From positions 1 to 56,663 of IMG/VR virus record IMGVR_UViG_3300036792_000179: DNA of 56,663 nt; one strand, 5' to 3'. This stretch comes from a virus (Duplodnaviria > Caudoviricetes). Made by a program: the position numbers and the translations under genes. The notes beneath the pieces were generated by a model. The model saw only the letters and a list, made by a program, of their open reading frames with translations, was not told where the DNA came from and did not search any database. Of the stretch, positions 4,046-25,457 are shown piece after piece. Each line of letters starts with the position of its first letter. Position 1 is the first letter of the stretch.

Positions 4046-5040
4046 GCGCCGTTGACGAGACAGTGGAGGCTACGGCCGTTGAGGTTGAGCCGCCACGCCA
4101 AGACATCGTCCGGCGCACGGAGCCGAGCCTGAGCGTCACGCCTCAGATCGGTGCAGCCGACCTCGTTGAGCGGCTGGACATGATCGAGCAGGCGATGCAC
4201 AGGGCCATGAAGCGCGATGTGGACTACGGCGTTGTGCCCGGCACCGACAAGCCCACGCTGTTCAAGCCGGGCGCAGAGAAGCTCGGCGTGCTTTTTCAGC
4301 TCGACGTGCAGATCGATAATGCCAAGACGTGGGGCGACGGCGATCACCTGACAGTCGTCTCACGTGCGACGGCGTTCCATGCACCCACGGGTGCGCGGCT
4401 TGGCTACGGCGAGGGGCTCTGTACGACGCGCGAGAAGAAGTACGCCAAACGCAAGCAGGAGCGCGTCTGTCCCGAGTGCGGAGAAGCCGCAGTGATCAAG
4501 GGCAAGGAGGAGTACGGCGGCGGCTGGCTCTGCTGGGCCAAGAAGGGTGGCTGCAACGCGAAGTGGGCAGACGGAGCTGACGAGATCGAGCGCCAACCGC
4601 AAGGCGAAGTCGACAACCCCGACTTGCCCGACGTGTGGAACACGGTCATCAAGATGGCCGAGAAGCGCGCCCGGGTGGACTGCATCCTCGCAGTGACCGG
4701 GGCGTCGGCGCTGTTCACACAGGACATGGACGATCAGGTAGAGCGCGCTCCACAGACAACTACAGCGTCGGGCAGCAGCTCACGCGTGAGTGCCGCGAAG
4801 CCACAGAAAACCGAACGTGTCGCCACTGCCAAGCAGCGCGGTCTCATCAACGTCAAGGCCTCGGAGGCGGGGCTCACGCAGAACGACTTGGCGAACGTAG
4901 TCAAACTCGCCACTGGCGGCGAGCCCCACGACTTCGAGTCCGAGGAGGCTGCGGCGACGTGGCTCAAGCGCAACCTCGATCGCCTGCCTGAGCGTCTTGT
5001 GGATGCCGTGCTCAACGGAATCACTGAGGCGGCGTCGTGA
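4042..5040 (+). CDS. Phage recombination / ssDNA-annealing-like protein with zinc ribbon
   Basis: DYGVVPGTDKPTLFKPGAEKL and NTVIKMAEKRA motifs; CPECG...C...C; adjacent to the exonuclease. Confidence 0.65.
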   Translation: MSAVDETVEATAVEVEPPRQDIVRRTEPSLSVTPQIGAADLVERLDMIEQAMHRAMKRDVDYGVVPGTDKPTLFKPGAEKLGVLFQLDVQIDNAKTWGDGDHLTVVSRATAFHAPTGARLGYGEGLCTTREKKYAKRKQERVCPECGEAAVIKGKEEYGGGWLCWAKKGGCNAKWADGADEIERQPQGEVDNPDLPDVWNTVIKMAEKRARVDCILAVTGASALFTQDMDDQVERAPQTTTASGSSSRVSAAKPQKTERVATAKQRGLINVKASEAGLTQNDLANVVKLATGGEPHDFESEEAAATWLKRNLDRLPERLVDAVLNGITEAAS

Positions 5041-5846
5041 CCGTCGCCGACCTGGAGATCCCGACTCGGCTTCCCGTCGATCACTTCTCGGCTTCGAGCA
5101 TCGGCACGTACCTGAAGTGCCCTGAGAGCTGGCGACGCAAGTACATTGAGCGGGAATACGACCGGCCTAGCGGTGCGATGGTTCTGGGCTCGTCTGTTGG
5201 TGCAGCCGAGAATCACGCCGACCAGCTCGTCATCGACGGTGAGGAGCGGCCCAGCACGGACGACGTGCTCGACCTTTTTACCGACGAGTTCGACGACCGC
5301 ACCGAGCGTGAGGAGGTCGCTTGGGCCGGCGAAACGCCGGGCGAAGCGAAGGACACCGGAATCGCCGCAGTGAAGGCCTATGAGCGCCTAGTCGTCCCGA
5401 CTATCAAGCCCGTATCGGTCGAGCGCGAATTCTGGCTGAACTTCGACGGCGTTGAGTGGGGCTTCCAGGGCTTCTTTGATCTCGAGCAAGAGGACGACAC
5501 GCTTGCCGACCGCAAGGTGATTGGCAAGAAGCTCGGGCAGGCCGACGCCGACGGTGACATTCAGCCGACGTCCTACTTCCTCGCTCGCCGCTCCGAGGGC
5601 AACCCAGCGAAGCGTTTCGACTTCCACACGATGGTCAAGACGAAGCAGCCTTACGCGGAAGTCGTGAAGACCGAGCGCACTGACGCTCAGCTCGATCACT
5701 TCGTCGACCGGCTCTACAGGATCTCGGCCGAGATCCTGTGGCGACTCGAAACGGATAACTGGGCAGGCGCTGCACCGCGCTCGTGGTGGTGCACACAGAA
5801 GTACTGCGGTTTCTGGGGCTCGTGTCCGATGGGTGGGGCGCGATGA
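5037..5846 (+). CDS. Cas4/RecB-like PD-(D/E)XK exonuclease
   Basis: HFSASS..TYLKCP, VEREF, GFFDL, ADRK, and a C-terminal C-x4-C-x5-C (four-Cys Fe-S staple). Confidence 0.85.
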   Translation: MTVADLEIPTRLPVDHFSASSIGTYLKCPESWRRKYIEREYDRPSGAMVLGSSVGAAENHADQLVIDGEERPSTDDVLDLFTDEFDDRTEREEVAWAGETPGEAKDTGIAAVKAYERLVVPTIKPVSVEREFWLNFDGVEWGFQGFFDLEQEDDTLADRKVIGKKLGQADADGDIQPTSYFLARRSEGNPAKRFDFHTMVKTKQPYAEVVKTERTDAQLDHFVDRLYRISAEILWRLETDNWAGAAPRSWWCTQKYCGFWGSCPMGGAR

Positions 5847-6175: not shown

Positions 6176-6705
6176 GCCTCAATCCCCAAGCACGCCACGG
6201 AGCCGAGTCGCTGTCTCATCAGGCGAAGAAAGGGGTGCTCCCAGTTGAGCGCTCGGCGAAGCGCGAGAAGTCACCGTCTCGCCTTCGCCGAGCAACCGAG
6301 CTGAAGCGCGGCGCCGGGCCCAAACGGTCTGCGCTCAGGTCTCGGAGCAAATCGATCAGCCCGGCAACCGCCGAGCAGAAAGCGAAGGTCGACGGCCGCG
6401 CCTGCATCGCAGCAGACCTTGGCCCGTGCCTGGGCGACGTCGATCCCGCCCATTTGATTGACCGTTCCCTGGCCCCGTCGATGGGTGATGACGTACGAGC
6501 AGTCGTGCCCCTCTGCCGCCGCCACCACAACGAGTACGACGAACACAAGCTCGACCTGTCGACAGTGCTCGAGCCTCGGTTGCGCGAAGAGGCCGCGTGG
6601 GCTGTTGAAGCGCTCGGTCTCTTCGGCGCCCTTCGGCGCATCACCGGCAAGCACTGGCAGCCCGTTGGCGCTGACCTCCCTCAACCACAAGGAGACCCGT
6701 CGTGA
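6172..6705 (+). CDS. Ref-like HNH-fold nuclease
   Basis: C...C...DPAHL...VPLCRRHH, with a basic N-terminus. Confidence 0.65.
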
Positions 6706-7448
6706 TCCAGATCAAGCGTTGGACGGATGGAAAAGTGTTGTACACGGCCGAGGGCGCAGCCGATGTAAAGGCGGCCCTCGAAGAGGCAGTGAAGGCGAAA
6801 GCCGACCTGCGCTACGCCGACCTGGGCTACGCCGACCTGCGCTACGCCGACCTGCGCTACGCCGACCTGCGCTACGCCGACCTGCGCTACGCCGACCTGC
6901 GCTACGCCGACCTGCGCTACGCCGACCTGCGCTACGCCGACCTGCGCTACGCCGACCTGCGCTCCGCCGACCTGCGCTACGCCAACCTGGGCTACGCCGA
7001 CCTGGGCTACGCCGACCTGCGCTCCGCCGACCTGCGCTCCGCCGACCTGCGCTACGCCGACCTGGACTACAGCCACCCACTTTGGGCCTTCTGGACGGAC
7101 TTCGTCGCAGTCCTCGACCGGGTACCAGCCGAGGCCGCCGGTCTGCGGGCGGCGATTGCAGAGGGCAACATAGACGGCTCCGTCTACGAGGGCGCGTGCG
7201 CGTGTCTCGTGGGCACGATCGCAAACGTTCGGCACGTCTCGTTCGACGAACTCGACATAGGCACTGACGCCTCGCGCCCGGCAGAGCAGTGGTTCATGCC
7301 GATTCGCAAAGGCGATGTTCCGATCGATGATCCAAAGCAGGCAAAGAGCGAGGGTGTCTTCCGAGCGAGCGTTGCGTTGCAGTGGCTCGACGAATGGGTT
7401 GAGCTGCGCAAGGGCGTTGCACAAGCGCTGGTGGCCGGGACGGCCTGA
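6702..7448 (+). CDS. Pentapeptide-repeat protein
   Basis: 18 A(D/N)Lx(Y/S) repeats; C-terminal [16 protein letters not shown] domain. Confidence 0.92.
6801..7070 (+). repeat. 15-bp tandem repeat, 18 units (GCCGACCTGCGCTAC)
   Basis: Directly visible; encodes the pentapeptides. Confidence 0.97.
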
Positions 7449-7717
7449 TGCACTACCCGCGCCCCTTGAGCATCCACCGCGCCGACGTCCAACGGCTCCT
7501 CATCCGAGCGGGCTGGACGCGACACGCCGACGGCAGCCTCTCCAGAGCAGGAGTCGTCTGGCGCAACGTCGGCAACCGGCGCGACAGCATCCTGCGCTTG
7601 TTCGAGGGCCACCCAGACTTCGTCGTCGAGTTCTCACCTGAAATCCCAGCCTCGGTTATCGCAGCTGCCTGTATTGCGGCTGCTGAGTTCTATGGGCGAC
7701 GGGCGGTGGCGGCGTAA
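7448..7717 (+). CDS. Hypothetical protein
   Basis: TGATG coupling. Confidence 0.6.
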   Translation: MHYPRPLSIHRADVQRLLIRAGWTRHADGSLSRAGVVWRNVGNRRDSILRLFEGHPDFVVEFSPEIPASVIAAACIAAAEFYGRRAVAA

Positions 7718-8208
7718 TGGCCTACGAGACCACGACAGTTCCCGTAGAGCGCTCACAGGGCGAGATCCGCAAGTTGCTGATCAAAGCTCAGATCGGTCAG
7801 CTCGCGTTTGGTGAGGACCGCGACGAGACAGGTCAGCGCTGGGCCGCTGTGACCTTCCGCCACACCGTCTACGCCGTCCGCATCCGCGTCCCACTGAAGG
7901 TCGTCGACGAGCGTGCGGTAGGCGCGAAGTACGTGCGCGCTCGCAGCAAGTCGCGCGACGAAGTGCGAGACCTTCTCTACGAGCAGCAGGAACGTCGGAT
8001 CTGGCGCGTGATGGCCTGGAACCTCAAGGCGCGGATGGTTGCCGTCGAGGAGGAGATAGAGACCTTCGAGCAGGCCTTCTTGCCGCACCTGCTCAACCCT
8101 GACACGGGCCGCACGATCTACGAGCAGCTTGCCGAGGACGGCCGCGTTGAGCTTCCTGCGCCGCTGCTCGCGCTTCCCGCCCCTGAAGACGCCGAGGTCA
8201 TCCGATGA
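7717..8208 (+). CDS. Conserved phage protein
   Basis: TTVPVERSQGEI...WR..AWNLKARMVAVE..IETFEQAFLPHL motif pattern. Confidence 0.7.
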   Translation: MAYETTTVPVERSQGEIRKLLIKAQIGQLAFGEDRDETGQRWAAVTFRHTVYAVRIRVPLKVVDERAVGAKYVRARSKSRDEVRDLLYEQQERRIWRVMAWNLKARMVAVEEEIETFEQAFLPHLLNPDTGRTIYEQLAEDGRVELPAPLLALPAPEDAEVIR

Positions 8209-8471
8209 TGCCTCCCGTACAGAGCCGAGCTGAACTTGTCCCCGGCCAGCGCGTGATTCGCGCGAGCGCTCGAATACGGTCTGCGGACGTACTCGGCACA
8301 GTGCTCGAGCAGAGCGATGGACTAGTGCGCATCGGCTTCGAGGACAAGACGGATCGATGGGTGGCACCGTCGCTCTTTCGCCCACTCGGCGAGCTCCGCG
8401 CCGAGGCCGATGAGGGCGTCCTCGCCGAGTGGATGTCCGATGTCTGCGATCACCCAGAGGCGGTCGCCTGA
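8205..8471 (+). CDS. Small SH3-like beta protein
   Basis: PGQRV...GTVL...VRIGF...WV pattern. Confidence 0.5.
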   Translation: MMPPVQSRAELVPGQRVIRASARIRSADVLGTVLEQSDGLVRIGFEDKTDRWVAPSLFRPLGELRAEADEGVLAEWMSDVCDHPEAVA

Positions 8472-8902
8472 TGCCCCGCCCAGCCCCCAACCGCCCTCTC
8501 ACCCAGCGTGACCACGCACTGATCAAAGCCCTACGAGAGGCAGTAGAGGAGGGCGTGCCGGTGGCTGAAGCTGCGGTGATCGCCGACACGCGATTCCTAC
8601 GCCGAGTCTTCAGCCGCATACGCGAACACGGCTTCGTGATCGGTGAACAGCACGAGCGCTACTTCATCGTCATCGACCCTGAGCGAACCGTCAGTAACTC
8701 GCCGGAGCAGCTCGCCAAGCCGTCCTCCCCCGACGGTCGAGCGGCGGACCTGTCACCGGCCTCGGCCGGGGTTCCGCGTAAGGCTCGGGTGCTCCCAGGC
8801 GACGCAGGGCTCATAACCCGAGCGTCTGCTGACGGTTCGCTGAGTGCCGAGGGCAGGCTTTTCGAGCTGCCGGCGAGGAAGCACTTCGAGGAGGCGGCGT
8901 AG
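8471..8902 (+). CDS. Putative HTH protein carrying an in-frame structured-RNA insert
   Basis: N-terminal RPLTQRD..LIKAL; codons at 8682-8841 form nested stems. Confidence 0.6.
   Translation: MPRPAPNRPLTQRDHALIKALREAVEEGVPVAEAAVIADTRFLRRVFSRIREHGFVIGEQHERYFIVIDPERTVSNSPEQLAKPSSPDGRAADLSPASAGVPRKARVLPGDAGLITRASADGSLSAEGRLFELPARKHFEEAA
8682..8841 (+). ncRNA. tRNA-fMet-derived expanded structured RNA (candidate)
   Basis: 15-bp closing stem; GGAGCAGCTCG...GTAAGGCTCG D-arm halves; GGG-CTCATAA-CCC anticodon arm; GACGGTTCG T-arm half. Confidence 0.55.
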
Positions 8903-9169
8903 ATGCCCTCCCGCAAGCCCCTCACGAAGCGCCAGCGCGAAGCTCTGCGTCTGATCTTCGTCTGCGAAAGCAGCGGCGACGGGTGGGCTATCGTCAGCAC
9001 GGACGCGACAGCGAAGATCGACGGCCAGGCGTGGATTCACTGGCGCACAGTTCTCGCGGTTCATCGGCGCGGCCTTGTCGAAGACGAGTACAACCTGTCG
9101 CCGGAAGAGTGGGACGAAGACGCGCGGGTCCGGCTGACGAGCGCTGGCAGGGAGGCTCTGGGTGCCTAA
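8903..9169 (+). CDS. Winged-helix-like small protein
   Basis: KPLTKRQREALRLI...RRGLV...RLTSAGREAL. Confidence 0.65.
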   Translation: MPSRKPLTKRQREALRLIFVCESSGDGWAIVSTDATAKIDGQAWIHWRTVLAVHRRGLVEDEYNLSPEEWDEDARVRLTSAGREALGA

Positions 9170-9326
9170 CCCCAAGCCCCTCACCCCAAAACGTGACATC
9201 ACAGCGCCCCTAGCTCAGATGCCAAGGCGCGCCGATAGGAGCGGTCTGGACCCAGGTGGCTCCGCACAAGAGCACCCGTCTTTCAAGCGGGAGGACCCGG
9301 CAGTGGCAAGCCGGGGGGCGCTGTGA
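9162..9326 (+). CDS. 54-aa ORF spanning the tRNA-like element
   Basis: RBS GGAGG at 9151, GTG start, MPNPKPLTP...; TGA overlaps the next GTG. Confidence 0.45.
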   Translation: MPNPKPLTPKRDITAPLAQMPRRADRSGLDPGGSAQEHPSFKREDPAVASRGAL

Positions 9327-9351
9327 TGTCACGAACCAAGCCCCTCACCCC
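9172..9351. repeat. 16-bp direct repeats flanking the tRNA-like element
   Basis: CCAAGCCCCTCACCCC at 9172-9187 and 9336-9351. Confidence 0.9.
9192..9333 (+). ncRNA. tRNA-Glu(UUC)-like RNA with 53-nt D-loop and acceptor stem extended to 19 bp
   Basis: Acceptor GCGCCCC/GGGGCGC; D-stem GCTC/GAGC; anticodon arm CCCGT-CTTTCAA-GCGGG; variable loop AGGAC; T-arm CCGGC-AGTGGCAA-GCCGG; flanks CGTGACATCACA/TGTGATGTCACG. Confidence 0.75.
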
Positions 9352-9598
9352 CGAGATGGTGCGCGACTGGATCGCAACGCGGCTGTTTGATCTGAGCGCC
9401 CGTCTGTTCGCCGCTGCTGAGAGCCTGCGCACCAAGGGACCGACGTGTGCCGACTGCGAGCTTGGGGAGATCGTGGACGGCCGTTGCGCGGTCTGCGATG
9501 AGCGCAACGCTCGGGACCGCGAAATGGGCCGAGCGGAAGAAGCTGCCGCGCACAAGGCGTGGGCCGAGGCAGAGCAGGAGTTCGCGCATGGCTTCTAA
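9323..9598 (+). CDS. Small zinc-finger protein
   Basis: KPLTPEMVR N-terminus; CADC...CAVC. Confidence 0.65.
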   Translation: MMSRTKPLTPEMVRDWIATRLFDLSARLFAAAESLRTKGPTCADCELGEIVDGRCAVCDERNARDREMGRAEEAAAHKAWAEAEQEFAHGF

Positions 9599-9824
9599 GC
9601 CCTTGACACCAGAGATGGTGCGCATCCTGCGGGCTGCGCGGGATGGGCGGCTGGGATTCGACGCTCAGCGTCGACGGTGGTACATAGACGACGAACTTGG
9701 GCCATTCCCCGCCGAGCTAAGTGCCTTGGTCCCACGCTTCGTTGTAGTCTTTGACGGAGGCCCAGCTTTGTCCGCATACGGCCGCGAAGCCCTCCAAGAC
9801 ATCGAAGCGCAGGAGGGGTCGTGA
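9588..9824 (+). CDS. Winged-helix-like small protein
   Basis: MASKPLTPEMVRILRAA...LSAYGREAL; RBS AGGAG. Confidence 0.65.
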   Translation: MASKPLTPEMVRILRAARDGRLGFDAQRRRWYIDDELGPFPAELSALVPRFVVVFDGGPALSAYGREALQDIEAQEGS

Positions 9825-10180
9825 TGCGCTGGATCGTCGTGCGCCACCTTCCGCAAGACGGCACCCTCCAGACCGACTGCGCGATAGTCACCGCTGACGA
9901 GGCCGCCAGAGCTGCAGAGGAGGGCGCTAGAGCGCTGATCGCGGAAGCCCCGCTCGAGGTCGGAGACTCACTCGACGAAGTAGTTGCGGTGATCGCAGTC
10001 GACGAGCGGCGAGCTCCCGAGTGGTTCCGATTCGACCTCAACGCCGAACGGTGCGAGCTGCAGTGCTGCGGTGGTGCACCGACGGACGACGGCCATAGTG
10101 GCTACTGCGAACTTCACGAGGACGGCAAGACGCCGTCCTCCACAGACATGGATGTCGAGGAGCGAGAGACGATGGCGTAG
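9821..10180 (+). CDS. Hypothetical protein
   Basis: RBS GGAGG; coupled. Confidence 0.6.
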   Translation: MMRWIVVRHLPQDGTLQTDCAIVTADEAARAAEEGARALIAEAPLEVGDSLDEVVAVIAVDERRAPEWFRFDLNAERCELQCCGGAPTDDGHSGYCELHEDGKTPSSTDMDVEERETMA

Positions 10181-10501
10181 ATGCCGTGGGTCAGGCTCGA
10201 CGACAGCTTCTACTCGCACCCGAAGGTGGTCAGCGCGGGCGCCGAGGCAGTCGGTCTCTACGTGATGGCGCTCACCTACGCCTCGCACCATTTGACCGAC
10301 GGTCACGTGCCGGCGGCATGGGTCCGCGAGAAGGTGGGCGCGAAGACGCGCAAGCTCACAGCTGCACTCGTCGAGCACAGCTTGTGGTCGGAGAACGGCA
10401 CCGGCTGGGTCATTCACGACTACCTCGAGTACAACCCCTCACGCGAGAGCATCGAGGACAAACGGCGCAAGGACGCTGCACGGAAGTCGGGTGGATCGTG
10501 A
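10181..10501 (+). CDS. Replication initiator / replisome organizer N-terminal wHTH domain
   Basis: MPWVRLDDSFYSHPKV...AVGLY...TDGHVP...LW...GWVIHDYLEYNPSR. Confidence 0.8.
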   Translation: MPWVRLDDSFYSHPKVVSAGAEAVGLYVMALTYASHHLTDGHVPAAWVREKVGAKTRKLTAALVEHSLWSENGTGWVIHDYLEYNPSRESIEDKRRKDAARKSGGS

Positions 10502-10688
10502 CGGGACTCCGCACGGATTCCAAACGGAGCAAACGTGGATGCCTCGCGTACGCGTACGAGCGCCTACGCGCGCACGCATCGCGCGGTCCCGAGCCCATAC
10601 CCGGAATACAGCTCTCCACGTCCCTTCACTGCGCTTGCCTAGCTCTAGATCTCCCACCTGTTGTCGCGCGAGCGGTGGGAACCGAATC

Positions 10689-11096
10689 ATGAGCGCCCTG
10701 GAGTTCAACTTCCGTCGGCAGCCTGAACGCGAGCAGTGGTCAGGCCGATGGGTGCGAGGGATCGAGCTTGAGGATCAGCGCATCAGTGAGCGAGCCGCGA
10801 AGCAACGCAAGAACAACAAGCAAGCGAGTCGACGTGCGATCGAGATCCATCGTCATCCGTCAGGCCGCTTGCTCGCCGCTTGGACGCCGGTCCAAGCTGC
10901 ACTCCGCGCGGAGCTGGACGAGTCCGTATTCAACATGTGGATTGCCCACCTCCATCCCCACTCGCTCGTCGGGGGCGTGTGGACGCTCGCGGCTCCCCGC
11001 ATTGCCGCAAGCTGGATCGAGGACCGCTTTGGCCGCGTCGTTGAGGCGTGCGCCGGGCGACCGTGCGTCTACGTCATCTGCGGTGGTGCGGCGTGA
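10689..11096 (+). CDS. DnaA N-terminal-domain-like replication protein (helicase recruitment)
   Basis: WTPVQAALRAELDESVFNMWIAHLHP...LAAP...WIEDRFG. Confidence 0.7.
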   Translation: MSALEFNFRRQPEREQWSGRWVRGIELEDQRISERAAKQRKNNKQASRRAIEIHRHPSGRLLAAWTPVQAALRAELDESVFNMWIAHLHPHSLVGGVWTLAAPRIAASWIEDRFGRVVEACAGRPCVYVICGGAA

Positions 11097-11470
11097 GCCA
11101 CATGATCTACCGCCCGGAGGTGATCGATCGCGCCAAGAAGCTCGCGGCGAGCGGATGGAATCCGTCGGAGATTCAGCGACTGCTCGAGCGGGAGCTCGGC
11201 GAGCGCCCAACCCGCGACACGATCAAGTGCTGGATAGATCCTGAGTTCGCCAAGCGCAGGTTCGCTCGCAAGGCTGCGTCGATGCGCCGGGCCTACCGCC
11301 CGCGTCCGCGACGGATTTCGCCAGATCTTCAGACCGAGCGCATGCTCGCACTGCGTGAGCGCGGGCTCAGCTTTGGCGCGATAGCGATCGTCAGCGAGGT
11401 GCTCTGGGACGCGCCGATTGCTGCTGAGCGGGTGCGCTATCGACTGCAGCGCCGGAAGGCGGCTGGGTGA
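11093..11470 (+). CDS. HTH DNA-binding protein
   Basis: Two HTH-like segments (SGWNPSEIQRLL; RGLSFGAIA). Confidence 0.65.
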   Translation: MSHMIYRPEVIDRAKKLAASGWNPSEIQRLLERELGERPTRDTIKCWIDPEFAKRRFARKAASMRRAYRPRPRRISPDLQTERMLALRERGLSFGAIAIVSEVLWDAPIAAERVRYRLQRRKAAG

Positions 11471-12582
11471 TGACTGCCACCGCAACGCGGCCCCCTCGCC
11501 GTCGGACTGCCAGTCGCCTGCCGGCCTCTGCCCGCCCGGATGTTGGAGGATGGCAGTCGATGAAGTTCTCGCAGGCGATCGAGCTGTACGTCAAGGACAT
11601 GCGGCGCTACGGCCGGATCAACTCCGATCGCACGGAGGACAGCTATCGCCACCGGCTCTACAAGCACGGCGAGGACATCGGCAATCGTGACCCGCGAACG
11701 GTCGGTCGCAACGACATCAAGCGCACGCTCTCGCGCTGGGAGGCAGCCAACACTCAACGCAACGCCCACGCGATCCTGATCAGCTTCTACGACTGGTCGA
11801 TGGAGGAGGGCCTGCGAAAAGATAACCCGGCTCGGCAGGTGCGCAAGGCGAAGAAGCGCGAGACCTCGGTATACCGACTGACCAAGAGCGAGGTCGTTTC
11901 CCTGATCGACGCATGCCAAACCCAGCGCGAGCGGCGCGTGATCGTGCTCGGCGTCTGCGAGGGCGTGCGCAACCAAGAGATGCGTGGCCTTCGCGGCGAG
12001 CACTTCCAGCGACCTGGCTTCGTCTGGGTCAGTCCCGATATCGGGAAGGGCAAACGCGAACGCTGGCTCCCGGTCATTCCCGAGGCGCAGGAGGTTGTCG
12101 ATGAGATCTGCGCGGAGGTCGACCTCGACGACTTCATCTTGCCGGCACGGCGCCCGAGCAACCCGCCGTGGAATACGCGGTGGAAGGAGTACCCAGCCAA
12201 GCCCTCGAGCCCACAGTCGATCTGGCGACTCGTCGGCGATGTGGCTGCTCGGGCGGGCATCGCCGCGCACATCCACCCGCACCTTCTGCGCCATGCCTAC
12301 GGCGATCACGTCGCCAAGTACGCCGGTCTTCGTGCCGCCCAGGCACTCCTCGGCCACGCATCCGTCGACACCACAGCATCGACCTACGTCGACAAGCCGG
12401 GGCTCGACGAGCTCTCAGTCAGCGTCCACGGCTTCTCCTACCGTGGAGCTATGGACGGCTACCCCCGCGCAGAACACCCCGCAATCCCGCAATCCGACCC
12501 GACTGGACTCCAACCGGTGGATGCGTCCAAAGACGCTGTAGAGCCGAATCCAGACGGGAAGGTGGAGGGGGAGGGCAGCTAA
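11467..12582 (+). CDS. int: Tyrosine integrase/recombinase (ATG 11560 is an alternative start)
   Basis: Catalytic set GVRNQE, GKGKRER, HPHLLRH, LLGHASVDTT...Y. Confidence 0.93.
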   Translation: MMTATATRPPRRRTASRLPASARPDVGGWQSMKFSQAIELYVKDMRRYGRINSDRTEDSYRHRLYKHGEDIGNRDPRTVGRNDIKRTLSRWEAANTQRNAHAILISFYDWSMEEGLRKDNPARQVRKAKKRETSVYRLTKSEVVSLIDACQTQRERRVIVLGVCEGVRNQEMRGLRGEHFQRPGFVWVSPDIGKGKRERWLPVIPEAQEVVDEICAEVDLDDFILPARRPSNPPWNTRWKEYPAKPSSPQSIWRLVGDVAARAGIAAHIHPHLLRHAYGDHVAKYAGLRAAQALLGHASVDTTASTYVDKPGLDELSVSVHGFSYRGAMDGYPRAEHPAIPQSDPTGLQPVDASKDAVEPNPDGKVEGEGS

Positions 12583-13017
12583 ATGCCCTACAAGGACCCC
12601 GCAAAGAAGCGCAAAGCGCAGCGTGAGTGGATCGCGCGCAGACGTGCCGAATGGCTTGAGGGTAAGTCCTGTGTGGACTGCGGCTCAACGGAGAACCTTG
12701 AGCTGGATCACGTCGACCCAGCCGAGAAGATCCACCACGCGATCTGGTCGTGGTCGAAGGTCCGGCGCGACGCTGAGATCGCCAAGTGCGTTCCTCGCTG
12801 CGCCGAGTGCCATCACGAGCGCCACGCGTCCGAACGTCGCAGCCACGGACATGGTGGCTACACGCGTGGCTGCCGCTGCGAGGTCTGCAAGGCGGCGAAG
12901 AGGCGAGGACGCGAATCGAACGCGCGTAAACGGCTTTGCAGGCCGCTGCCTAACCACTCGGCCACCTCGCCAGAGCAGGCATCCTACTCTCAGCTCGAAC
13001 TCGGCGAGGCCGCCTGA
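12583..13017 (+). CDS. HNH endonuclease; C-terminus is the antisense reading of tRNA-Cys
   Basis: MPYKDP...CVDCGSTENLELDH...KCVPRCAECH...CRCEVC. Confidence 0.8.
   Translation: MPYKDPAKKRKAQREWIARRRAEWLEGKSCVDCGSTENLELDHVDPAEKIHHAIWSWSKVRRDAEIAKCVPRCAECHHERHASERRSHGHGGYTRGCRCEVCKAAKRRGRESNARKRLCRPLPNHSATSPEQASYSQLELGEAA
12901..12971 (-). tRNA. tRNA-Cys(GCA)
   Basis: Reverse complement GGCGAGG TG GCC GAGTGGTTA GGC A GCGGC CTGCAAA GCCGT TTAC GCGCG TTCGATT CGCGT CCTCGCC T; U73 discriminator; -10 TAGGAT at 12986-12981. Confidence 0.9.
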
Positions 13018-23667: not shown

Positions 23668-23962
23668 TTCCGACCGCGGCCCGGTCGCCGCGGCGGTTGC
23701 CAAGGATCTCGCCGAGATTCGCAAACACGACGCGGACCTAGCCGACGGCGCACTTGCCGCCTCTGCCCTCGCACTCGCTTGCGAGATCGACGGCAGCGAC
23801 AACTCCGCCACGTCCAAGAGCATGTGCGCCCGCGAGCTACGCGACACGATGGACCGTCTGTGGCAGTTGATGCCCGAGGAGGAGAATGCCGACGGCATCA
23901 ACGATCTCGAGAAGCAGCGAGAACGGAGACGAGCTAAGCGGGCAGCAGCAGCCTCGAGTTAG
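23654..23962 (+). CDS. Terminase small subunit
   Basis: ALALACEID...ARELRDTM; directly upstream of TerL. Confidence 0.75.
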   Translation: MAPRNSDRGPVAAAVAKDLAEIRKHDADLADGALAASALALACEIDGSDNSATSKSMCARELRDTMDRLWQLMPEEENADGINDLEKQRERRRAKRAAAASS

Positions 23963-25457
23963 CTGGGTTCCCCCATCTGTCGCCTCGACCGGCGAGGAAG
24001 CCATCGAGCTGGCCCGGATGACAGGCCTTGAACTCGACCCCTGGCAAGAGCTTGTTCTCGCCGGATCGCTTGGCGAAAAAGCGGACGGCAAATGGGCGGC
24101 ACGCGAGGTTGGCTGCGTAGTCCCGCGTCAGAATGGCAAGAACTCAATTCTTGAGGCCCGCGAGCTCGCAGGTCTGTTCCTCCTCGGTGAGCGGCTGATA
24201 ATCCACTCGGCCCACCAGTTCGATACCTCAGTCGAGCAGTTCCGCAGGCTGCTCTTCTTGGTCGAAGAGGACTCGCAGTTCAAGAAGCGCGTGGCGAAAA
24301 TCTCCCGAGCGCACGGCGCGGAGGGGATCACGCTCAAGAACGGCCAGCGGATCACCTTCCGCACCCGGACGCGTGGTGGTGGACGCGGATTCTCCTGCGA
24401 CTGCTTGGTGCTCGACGAGGCGATGATCCTGCCCGAGTCTGCGCACGGCGCTTTGATGCCGACGCTCTCCGCTCGGCCCAACCCGCAGATTTGGTACACG
24501 GGCTCAGCCGTCGACCAGGAGATCCACGAAGACGGCATCGTGTTTGCTCGTGTTCGTGAGCGCGGAACCGCAGGGAACGACCCCGGCTTGGCCTACTTCG
24601 AGTGGTCAGTCGAGGGCGATAGCCCCGAGGAAGTCGGCAAGGAACGTGCGACCGACCCAGAGGCGTGGGCTGAAGCGAACCCCGGCTTGGGCATTCGGAT
24701 CTCAGCCGAGCACGTCGCGCTCGAGCAACGCTCGATGGACCCACGCACCTTCGCCGTCGAGCGTCTTGGAGTCGGCGACTGGCCGCAGACCGATGGCTTC
24801 GCCAAGAAGAAGATCCACCCGGAGGCCTGGGCGGGACTGACCGACTCAGACTCACGTCCCAAAGACCCAGTCTGCTTCTGCCTGGATGTCTCGCCCGACA
24901 GGGCTTGGGCGAGCATCGGTGTCGCCGGCAGACGCTCGGATGGTCTGGCGCACCTGGAGACAATCGACCGTGGAAGCCTGCGTGGTACGGGCTGGGTCGT
25001 TGAGCGTTGCGTCGAGCTGACCAAAAAGCACCGCAACGTAGGACTGGCCCTCGCCGCGAACGGTCCTGTCGCCTCGCTGCTCCCTGATTTGCAGAAGGCC
25101 GGTCTGACGCTTCAGACCGAGCCCGGCCGAGGAACGATCATCCTCGTCAACTCAGCAGAGGAAGCTCAAGCCTGCGGAGGCCTCTACGACGCGGTCGATC
25201 AGTCACTGCTTAGGCACCTGGGCACACCAGACCTACAAGCTGCCATCGCCGGAGCGGTAGCAAGACCACTCGGCGACCGCTGGGCGTGGAACCGCAAGGA
25301 CTCAACGATCGACATCTCACCTTTGGTTGCGGTCACGCTGGCTTTGTGGGGACTTCAGACGTTCGCCAAGCCCGGCAAAGCACAGGTCGTAGACCTAAAC
25401 GAGTTGGTCAATGAAATGCGAGAGGACGGAGAGGATCTGTCTGATCCCTTCGCGTGA
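23886..25457 (+). CDS. terL: Terminase large subunit (exact start uncertain)
   Basis: LDPWQ, VPRQNGKN (Walker A), LVLDEA (Walker B), ANPGLG, LDVSPDR, DISPLVA. Confidence 0.96.
   Translation: MPTASTISRSSENGDELSGQQQPRVSWVPPSVASTGEEAIELARMTGLELDPWQELVLAGSLGEKADGKWAAREVGCVVPRQNGKNSILEARELAGLFLLGERLIIHSAHQFDTSVEQFRRLLFLVEEDSQFKKRVAKISRAHGAEGITLKNGQRITFRTRTRGGGRGFSCDCLVLDEAMILPESAHGALMPTLSARPNPQIWYTGSAVDQEIHEDGIVFARVRERGTAGNDPGLAYFEWSVEGDSPEEVGKERATDPEAWAEANPGLGIRISAEHVALEQRSMDPRTFAVERLGVGDWPQTDGFAKKKIHPEAWAGLTDSDSRPKDPVCFCLDVSPDRAWASIGVAGRRSDGLAHLETIDRGSLRGTGWVVERCVELTKKHRNVGLALAANGPVASLLPDLQKAGLTLQTEPGRGTIILVNSAEEAQACGGLYDAVDQSLLRHLGTPDLQAAIAGAVARPLGDRWAWNRKDSTIDISPLVAVTLALWGLQTFAKPGKAQVVDLNELVNEMREDGEDLSDPFA

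Follow-up and report, generated by a model that had tools for sequence, protein, structure and literature searches.

Base pairing in a cassette carried in frame inside a small phage gene is under selection, and the peptides that the cassette encodes (VERT, GLITRAS and GSLSA) are by-products of that pairing. The cassette is a discrete linker unit, translated in frame, that is present or absent as a whole among close homologues and occurs in at least three protein contexts. By sequence, the tip of its conserved hairpin (P3) and the flank 3' of that tip copy the anticodon arm and variable loop of an initiator-type tRNA-Met(CAU). The best explanation, to which I give about an even chance, is that the translated cassette contains an RNA, acting on the sense strand, that mimics the anticodon arm of tRNA-Met.

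A structured cassette inside the coding frame

The window analysed here spans all 56,663 bases of its IMG/VR virus record and has an estimated completeness of 96% and a G+C content of 62%. Its large terminase (23886-25457) is closest to those of phages of Rhodococcus, Mycobacterium and Gordonia, and this resemblance, at about 45% identity, places the phage with the actinophages. Among the sequencing runs that contain the stretch, one DNA run, from a soil metagenome, and no RNA runs are listed. The ORF that hosts the cassette (8471..8902, + strand) encodes P0001, a protein of 143 amino acids laid out as an N-terminal winged-helix-like domain, a disordered linker that holds the cassette, and a C-terminal tail (...LFELP..HFEEAA); a search of solved structures with this protein returned only noise. 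The start of the ORF overlaps the preceding gene (ATGA), and the next ATG follows directly after its end. That the cassette is translated follows from the LF...AA tail, which lies downstream of it and is conserved in the same frame.

The cassette lies in an early or lysogeny module. This module includes a CI-like repressor (1768-2322, - strand), a PD-(D/E)XK (PDDEXK) nuclease (5037-5846), a DnaA_N-domain protein (10491-11096), a tyrosine integrase (11467-12582) and, in the early region, a pentapeptide-repeat protein (6702-7448, E 1e-35), a type of protein that can mimic DNA. Five consecutive small ORFs, at 8471, 8903, 9162, 9323 and 9595, have a similar K/R-P-L-T N-terminus, and their starts carry short DNA repeats of families D2 and D5; to judge by these shared features, the five look like a run of small paralogous winged-helix-type genes.

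All the strings listed in the sequence-only reading, from which this work started, lie at their positions when checked against the window sequence. The closing stem, P1, has a core of 15 pairs (14 Watson-Crick and one U.G) between AGCGAACCGTCAGTA (8682-8696) and TGCTGACGGTTCGCT (8827-8841), and it reaches outward to 8675/8848, about 20 pairs in all, past a conserved G.G mismatch at 8681/8842. On the + strand, its 5' arm (8675..8696) is read as the codons D-P-E-R-T-V-S-N and its 3' arm (8827..8848), which includes the block GACGGTTCG (8831-8839), as S-A-D-G-S-L-S-A. The 5' arm codons GAG CGA ACC GTC (E-R-T-V) are the reverse complement of GAC GGT TCG CTC (D-G-S-L), and this complement fits the 3' arm except for the G.G mismatch at CTG.

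Between the arms of P1 lie, on the same strand, a variable arm, P2 (8697..8800), and the conserved hairpin P3 (8801..8826). P2 contains the D-arm-like GGAGCAGCTCG (8704-8714), the codons of a conserved R-K-A, CGTAAGGCTC (8777-8786), and the block GTAAGGCTCG (8778-8787); it varies in length and sequence, with 104 nt in the window, fewer in two other phage contigs, L005 and L006, and none in a third contig, L003. P3 reads GACGC-A-GGG[CTCATAA]CCC-GA-GCGTC, with GGG-CTCATAA-CCC at 8807-8819 and GCGTC at 8822-8826. It stacks directly on the 3' arm of P1 and encodes D-A-G-L-I-T-R-A-S.

Only four inverted repeats (seed 11, arms no more than 300 nt apart) are found in the whole 56,663-base window, and two of these are the P1 arms and a perfect 19-bp pair 350 bases downstream. 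The 160-nt segment folds to -87.4 kcal/mol against -69.3 +/- 4.4 for shuffled sequences (z -4.09), with none of 200 shuffles as good. A 13-bp arm match taken alone is unremarkable, given that AGCGAACCGTCAG has three hits at up to two mismatches where 2.7 are expected. The inverted repeat is more than chance, and the decisive point is that other phages keep its pairing through changes that compensate each other. The earlier claim of a structured element hidden in frame in a protein gene is borne out. The cassette is single-copy in the window genome, and it can be read through in one of the three sense frames only, the others having stops.

Pairing and peptide among the relatives

A profile search of 1.84 billion representative proteins returned 87 relatives of P0001 at E <= 0.001. 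The family layout is an N-terminal winged-helix domain, a variable linker and a C-terminal tail, LF..P...H/Y.EEAA, and 5 of the 30 members scanned match HTH_39. In a subset of relatives the linker holds VERT..., often RKAP, and then GDAGLITRASADGSLSA, a motif that is invariant in three proteins otherwise about 40% identical. Nearly all C-termini of P0001-P0088 take the form LF(E/D).P...(H/Y)...(E/D)AA, so that the family C-terminus may be a short linear motif with an Ala-Ala end; such an end is reminiscent of protease tags. A search of a 5.8-billion-protein set with the region added nothing.

At the DNA level, a degenerate, frame-blind pattern of P3 and the 3' arm matched L005 and L006 in IMG/VR, metagenome contigs of these same two sizes, and no site in 596 Gb of bacterial and archaeal genomes. 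To both L005 (81% over 70 nt) and L006 (92% over 51 nt), the cassette is the only local blastn match of the window. Among cultured phages and plasmids, neither blastn nor tblastn found a relative with the region or with P0001, P0008 and P0007 as queries; searches of viral and genome contigs with P0001 or alignment A1 found nothing, and a contig search with alignment A2 found three loci, with the hairpin in L003 only. Two scans with arm patterns gave 19 loci, which on inspection were mostly chance and of which only L005 was real, and six loci, of which only L031 was real, this being the L003 contig. In all IMG/VR scans, only four contigs carry the stem.

Across the four DNA examples on which the DNA-level evidence for the stem rests (the window, L005, L006 and L003), 74 of the 79 cells of P1 are paired and five pairs (seven cells) have changed on both sides; slid controls are 29-48% paired, and 2 of 500 shuffles score as high. 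When P1 and P3 are taken together over three DNA sequences, 80 of 83 cells are paired and four pairs have changed on both sides, against 31-42% in slid controls, and P3 alone is paired in 24 of 24 cells. RNAalifold recovered P1 and P3 unprompted and did not resolve P2. The L005 copy folds with z -3.92. The weak case is L006 (z -1.55, with 18 of 200 shuffles as good), in which P1 is interrupted by a G.G and a C.A that form a 2x2 internal loop.

Facing codons also vary together in the proteins, in tests that assume the best codon choice and whose statistics ignore kinship; pairing in the real DNA is slightly below the level predicted under that assumption. At the codon pair x1/y1, 19 of 22 proteins have pairable codons, with 11 amino-acid pair types (shuffle mean 10.3; none of 2000 shuffles reaches the observed value), and at x2/y2 all 22 do (equalled by a fraction of 0.004 of shuffles). 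The pair types seen at these two variable positions are V/D, I/D, A/S, G/A, S/A, A/G, D/V, S/T, G/T, S/R and G/P. In the inner stem of P3, DA...AS swaps with DP...GS, EP...GS and ET...VS, all of them exact complements, and this covariation (A/A, P/G, T/V) leaves the stem pairable in 18 of 19 proteins, a result that none of 2000 shuffles gave. The residue after G-L-I is T, S or P, all NCC, which keeps the CCC strand. In an anchored stem scan, 24 of 38 family proteins had an unbroken run of at least five pairable codon pairs, compared with 9% of shuffled tails; some of the positives are abbreviated, lacking the GLITR hairpin and with just 12-17 residues separating the arms. The stem-breaking synonymous changes that the sequence-only reading had named as evidence against itself were not what was found: stem changes are compensated, both in DNA and in codon pairs.

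This covariation also decides the standing of a purely peptide reading, in which the linker would hold a short linear motif and the inverted repeat would be coincidental. Such a reading accounts for DAGLITRASADGSLSA, which is invariant in three proteins only about 40% identical overall. It does not account for substitutions that are non-conservative yet complementary (V/D, A/S, G/A, D/V, P/G and T/V), for the alternation of T, S and P where only NCC is needed, or for the origin of GLITRGS, another form of the motif, in the translation of true tRNA-Met genes. Conserved rare codons also argue against it: in the 18 large ORFs, CGA makes up 9% of Arg, ATA 4% of Ile, GGT 17% of Gly, and TCT and AGT 6% each of Ser, and all of these are kept in the cassette. 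Largely refuted by the covariation, the peptide reading is scarcely credible. Because facing stem codons co-vary, the GLITRAS "peptide motif" is the translation of a selected fold.

Which strand folds is less sharply defined. The wobble pairs of P1 (six G.U cells vs one C.A cell) favour the sense strand, with 74 of 79 cells paired where the antisense strand would pair 69; this is a modest preference, and single-stranded DNA also tolerates G.T. The question bears on a DNA-level reading, in which the cassette would be a single-stranded hairpin used in replication priming or recombination, or an attB/attP-like target of an integrase that recognises the tRNA-Met anticodon arm. The cassette does sit in a recombination, replication and integration module (5037-5846, 10491-11096 and 11467-12582), and its antisense fold is nearly as stable as the sense fold (z -3.24 vs -4.09). 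The lambda origin, which lies inside gene O, in its linker-coding part, provides a parallel as a cis-acting nucleic-acid site within the flexible linker of a DNA-binding protein gene. Unlike that origin, the cassette has no iterons or AT-rich tract in or near it, and its covariation points to a folded single strand. The spacing of the arms, which ranges from about 45 to 144 nt, speaks against a dimeric double-stranded DNA site, the wobble pairs favour one strand, and a tRNA-Cys-like candidate site is already present beside the integrase. I regard a DNA-level role as very doubtful.

Likeness to initiator tRNA

The GGG-CTCATAA-CCC at the tip of P3 is identical to the anticodon stem-loop of initiator tRNA, and the corresponding block (8807..8821, + strand) consists of three G-C pairs, the loop CUCAUAA and then CCCGA. 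E. coli metZ shares GGGCTCATAACCCGA with the cassette, an exact match of 15 nt at metZ positions 30-44. A Streptomyces initiator tRNA shares two collinear exact blocks in tRNA order: GGAGCAGCTCG, an 11-mer at positions 9-19 of that tRNA, and GGGCTCATAACCC, of 13 nt; an 11-mer match arose in 0.1% of 2000 shuffles. In free-gap local alignment against initiator tRNA, the window cassette scores z 6.3 (Streptomyces; none of 300 shuffles as high), L005 4.4 and L006 3.9-4.7. Against the window's own tRNA-Arg and tRNA-Cys, the window cassette scores 1.2 and 0.1, and the three cassettes range from -0.8 to 1.2; the stem-only L003, at z about 0 against initiator tRNA, has no tRNA similarity. The likeness to initiator tRNA noticed at the outset is specific, at z of about 4-6 vs about 0-1 for other tRNAs; its basis is the anticodon arm and, in two of three DNA copies, a D-arm block. 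Both the window and L006 have the loop CTCATAA, whose counterpart in L005 is CTCATCA, and CTCAT is invariant in all three DNA copies.

P3 and its 3' flank are identical to phage tRNA-Met genes at 19 of 20 positions. The pattern GGGCTCATNNCCCGAGNGTC occurs at seven further IMG/VR loci, of which five lie in tRNA-Met genes called by ARAGORN, one is tRNA-like and uncalled, and one is a chance match in coding sequence; it is these tRNA-Met genes that give GLITRGS when translated in the matching frame. The anticodon arm and variable-loop region thus look, from this identity, to be derived from a tRNA-Met gene. Phage tRNA-Met(CAU) genes share GGGCTCATAACCCGAG.GTC with the cassette, and the window also has the collinear D-arm block, but the cassette differs from such genes in its large insertions and in having no acceptor stem, T arm or cloverleaf.

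The idea of a remodeled tRNA-fMet, with its parts in tRNA order, survives only in part. The anticodon arm stands, as does the collinear D-arm block in the window; there is no cloverleaf, and the D-arm block, shifted in L005 and missing from L006, is present in two of three DNA copies. The GGTTCG that had been taken for a T-arm remnant pairs with CGAACC in P1 and does not form a T-loop. The acceptor stem and the 3' strand of the T-stem are both absent from the cassette sequence. The Rfam tRNA family (RF00005) gave no match at E <= 10 on 2 kb or on 201 nt around the cassette, and the best hits to any Rfam 15 family, Y RNA-like, ribozymes and riboswitches included, were noise (E 1-9, far below cut-offs).

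ARAGORN called only two tRNAs in the window, tRNA-Arg (1207-1281) and tRNA-Cys (12900-12971), and none at the cassette. The complete tRNA-Cys(GCA) lies on the - strand inside a + strand ORF (12583-13017) whose C-terminus is ...LELGEAA, just downstream of the integrase (11467-12582), and its region is likely the attachment-site region.

The perfect 19-bp arms downstream (9192-9210 / 9315-9333; fold z -5.79) bound a second element. Its parts are an acceptor GCGCCCC/GGGGCGC with a 12-bp extension of the stem, TAGCTCAG, a D-loop insert of about 45 nt and an anticodon hairpin CCCGT-CTTTCAA-GCGGG, and in these parts the element (9192-9333) reads like tRNA-Glu(UUC). On either side of the element stands one copy of an exact 16-nt direct repeat, CCAAGCCCCTCACCCC (9172-9187 and 9336-9351). 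This repeat is a duplication of the 5' end of the following gene, which now has its start codon within the right arm, and from this arrangement the element looks like an insertion. Rfam and ARAGORN gave no match on 9192-9333, and in IMG/VR 16 hits to one arm were found, none with the second arm. The Met-like cassette and then the Glu-like element lie on the same strand (window 8682-9333), and two unrelated AT-rich phage contigs (L052 863-1228 and L055 8900-9260) have true genes for tRNA-Met and tRNA-Glu(ttc) in that order too, separated by about 220 nt. The shared order may be chance, or a tRNA gene pair may be the ancestor of both elements in the window.

Portability and possible role

Homologues without the cassette codons, which the sequence-only reading had proposed looking for, do exist: by the criteria applied here, 51 of 66 HTH_39-type relatives have no hairpin, six have the stem only and nine the full cassette. 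P0007 and P0051 are identical at 67 of 71 positions up to ...VSGP, and both then continue with ELSEAPAS and the tail, but 65 residues from EGDG-VERT to GSLSA-DG are present in P0007 only, so that P0051 equals P0007 minus the cassette. These two protein sequences alone also hint at a D-G on both sides of the cassette. On a tree of the 66 HTH_39-type N-domains, built quickly from few columns and with many forks unresolved, the nine full-cassette rows require 8 changes, against a shuffled mean of 8.6. In L005 the cassette forms the C-terminal tail of a PDDEXK_1 nuclease (E 6e-7); in P0001-type proteins the N-domain differs, and in P0030 the cassette is N-terminal. With a clean indel, scatter on the tree and an occurrence in a nuclease tail, the cassette behaves as a portable unit.

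What makes it portable could be selfishness. A palindromic insertion element of the RPE/MITE type, perhaps tRNA-derived, would survive in frame in tolerant linkers and tails at no benefit to the phage; close counterparts, the Rickettsia palindromic elements (RPE), reportedly lie in frame in genes. Both are palindromic units of 100-150 nt that add a peptide segment in frame to otherwise normal proteins; both are present in some homologues and absent from others, have terminal inverted repeats (in the cassette, the P1 arms) and can form an RNA hairpin. The clean difference between P0007 and P0051, the scatter on the tree, the three protein contexts, the one stop-free sense frame and the neighbouring tRNA-like hairpin element with its 16-nt direct repeat all fit such an element. 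Yet the cassette has a tRNA-Met-like core, occurs in phages, and is single-copy per genome, with no duplication or multi-copy spread seen; the stem is on four IMG/VR contigs only and has no hits in the 596 Gb of bacterial and archaeal genomes. No flanking direct repeat of the target-site duplication kind is visible at the window copy, and no transposase candidate was identified. Eleven compensated pair types and the many compensated stem changes point to long-term selection on pairing, not to recent copying. I consider the selfish reading possible but unlikely.

A more modest alternative is that the cassette is only an mRNA hairpin, such as an RNase III site, through which the early operon is processed, stabilised or controlled in its translation, and that its tRNA likeness is a relic of a phage tRNA-Met gene. 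Versions with the stem and without the tRNA-like part (the L003 DNA and the proteins P0009, P0033, P0060, P0079 and P0086) favour it, as do the length of P1, about two helical turns, and the G.G mismatch conserved in all four DNA copies. The RNase III processing hairpins of phage early transcripts (the T7 R sites and lambda sib) likewise occur in early polycistronic transcripts as helices of about 20 bp interrupted by an internal mismatch, but they are intergenic, whereas the cassette is in a coding region and its cleavage by RNase III is putative. Against the hairpin-only reading, P3 is the most conserved block at the nucleotide level and has its own covariation, and its loop keeps CTCAT in every one of the three DNA copies. 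This reading seems to me distinctly unlikely.

In the preferred reading, an RNA mimic of the tRNA-Met anticodon arm, the P1/P3 fold most likely functions as sense-strand RNA in the early transcript; a structured RNA domain there would fit the selected sense-strand pairing, the helix of two turns and the conserved tRNA-type loop. The long P1 helix would insulate the tRNA-like domain and, as a predicted helix of two turns, could let RNase III excise it. The freed domain would display an anticodon arm of the initiator type for recognition by a host factor, for which an anticodon nuclease or toxin, MetRS, and IF3/30S are candidates. The putative role as a decoy for VapC-type toxins, put forward in the initial reading, is compatible with the evidence. 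P1 may also have its own role in mRNA processing or stability, since stem-only relatives exist. It also tells against the mimic that ribosomes translating the ORF would unfold the structure, and that P1, as the stem-only copies show, can do without the tRNA-like part in whatever role it has.

Anticodon-arm mimics are known in mRNAs (the thrS operator) and as viral tRNA-like structures (plant-virus TLS). The cassette resembles them as a hairpin that copies the anticodon stem-loop of one tRNA inside messenger RNA; it differs in that theirs lie in untranslated regions and have known partners, whereas the cassette hairpin is enclosed by a long closing helix within coding sequence and has only candidate partners.

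Several other readings were tried and rejected. A kissing loop was set aside because the loop target TTATGAG has no other site in the window and occurs only as the loop's own complement. Frameshifting or bypass was dropped, with no slippery site seen and the cassette open in frame; an intrinsic terminator, with no U tract after the stem; and a retron msr/msd, with reverse transcriptase PF00078 absent from the whole record. A scan limited to the sigma-70 consensus found no promoter-like sites near the cassette, and there are no terminator-like sites (stem plus U tract) in 7400-10200.

A bolder version, improbable as it stands, is that actinophages carry a class of portable, hairpin-bounded, tRNA-derived cassettes, inserted in frame in tolerant parts of early genes, from which a stable initiator anticodon-arm decoy would be excised at the long closing helix and would blunt a host factor that attacks or reads the arm; the tRNA-Glu-like element at 9192-9333 would be a second member.

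The cassette shows clearly how a selected nucleic-acid fold can leave, in a disordered linker, a shadow that reads as a conserved "peptide motif": the amino acids on the two sides of the stem change together, and the codons stay complementary. A literature search found no description of such an element. Surveys of structured RNA that discard coding regions beforehand would miss elements of this kind; the account of one IMG/VR survey (PMC10690425) has predicted coding regions removed for DNA viruses. If the cassette is mobile, it would be a tRNA-derived insertion element living inside phage genes. If the copy of the anticodon arm has a function, the phage would have a new route to the host initiator-tRNA machinery or to tRNA-targeting defences.
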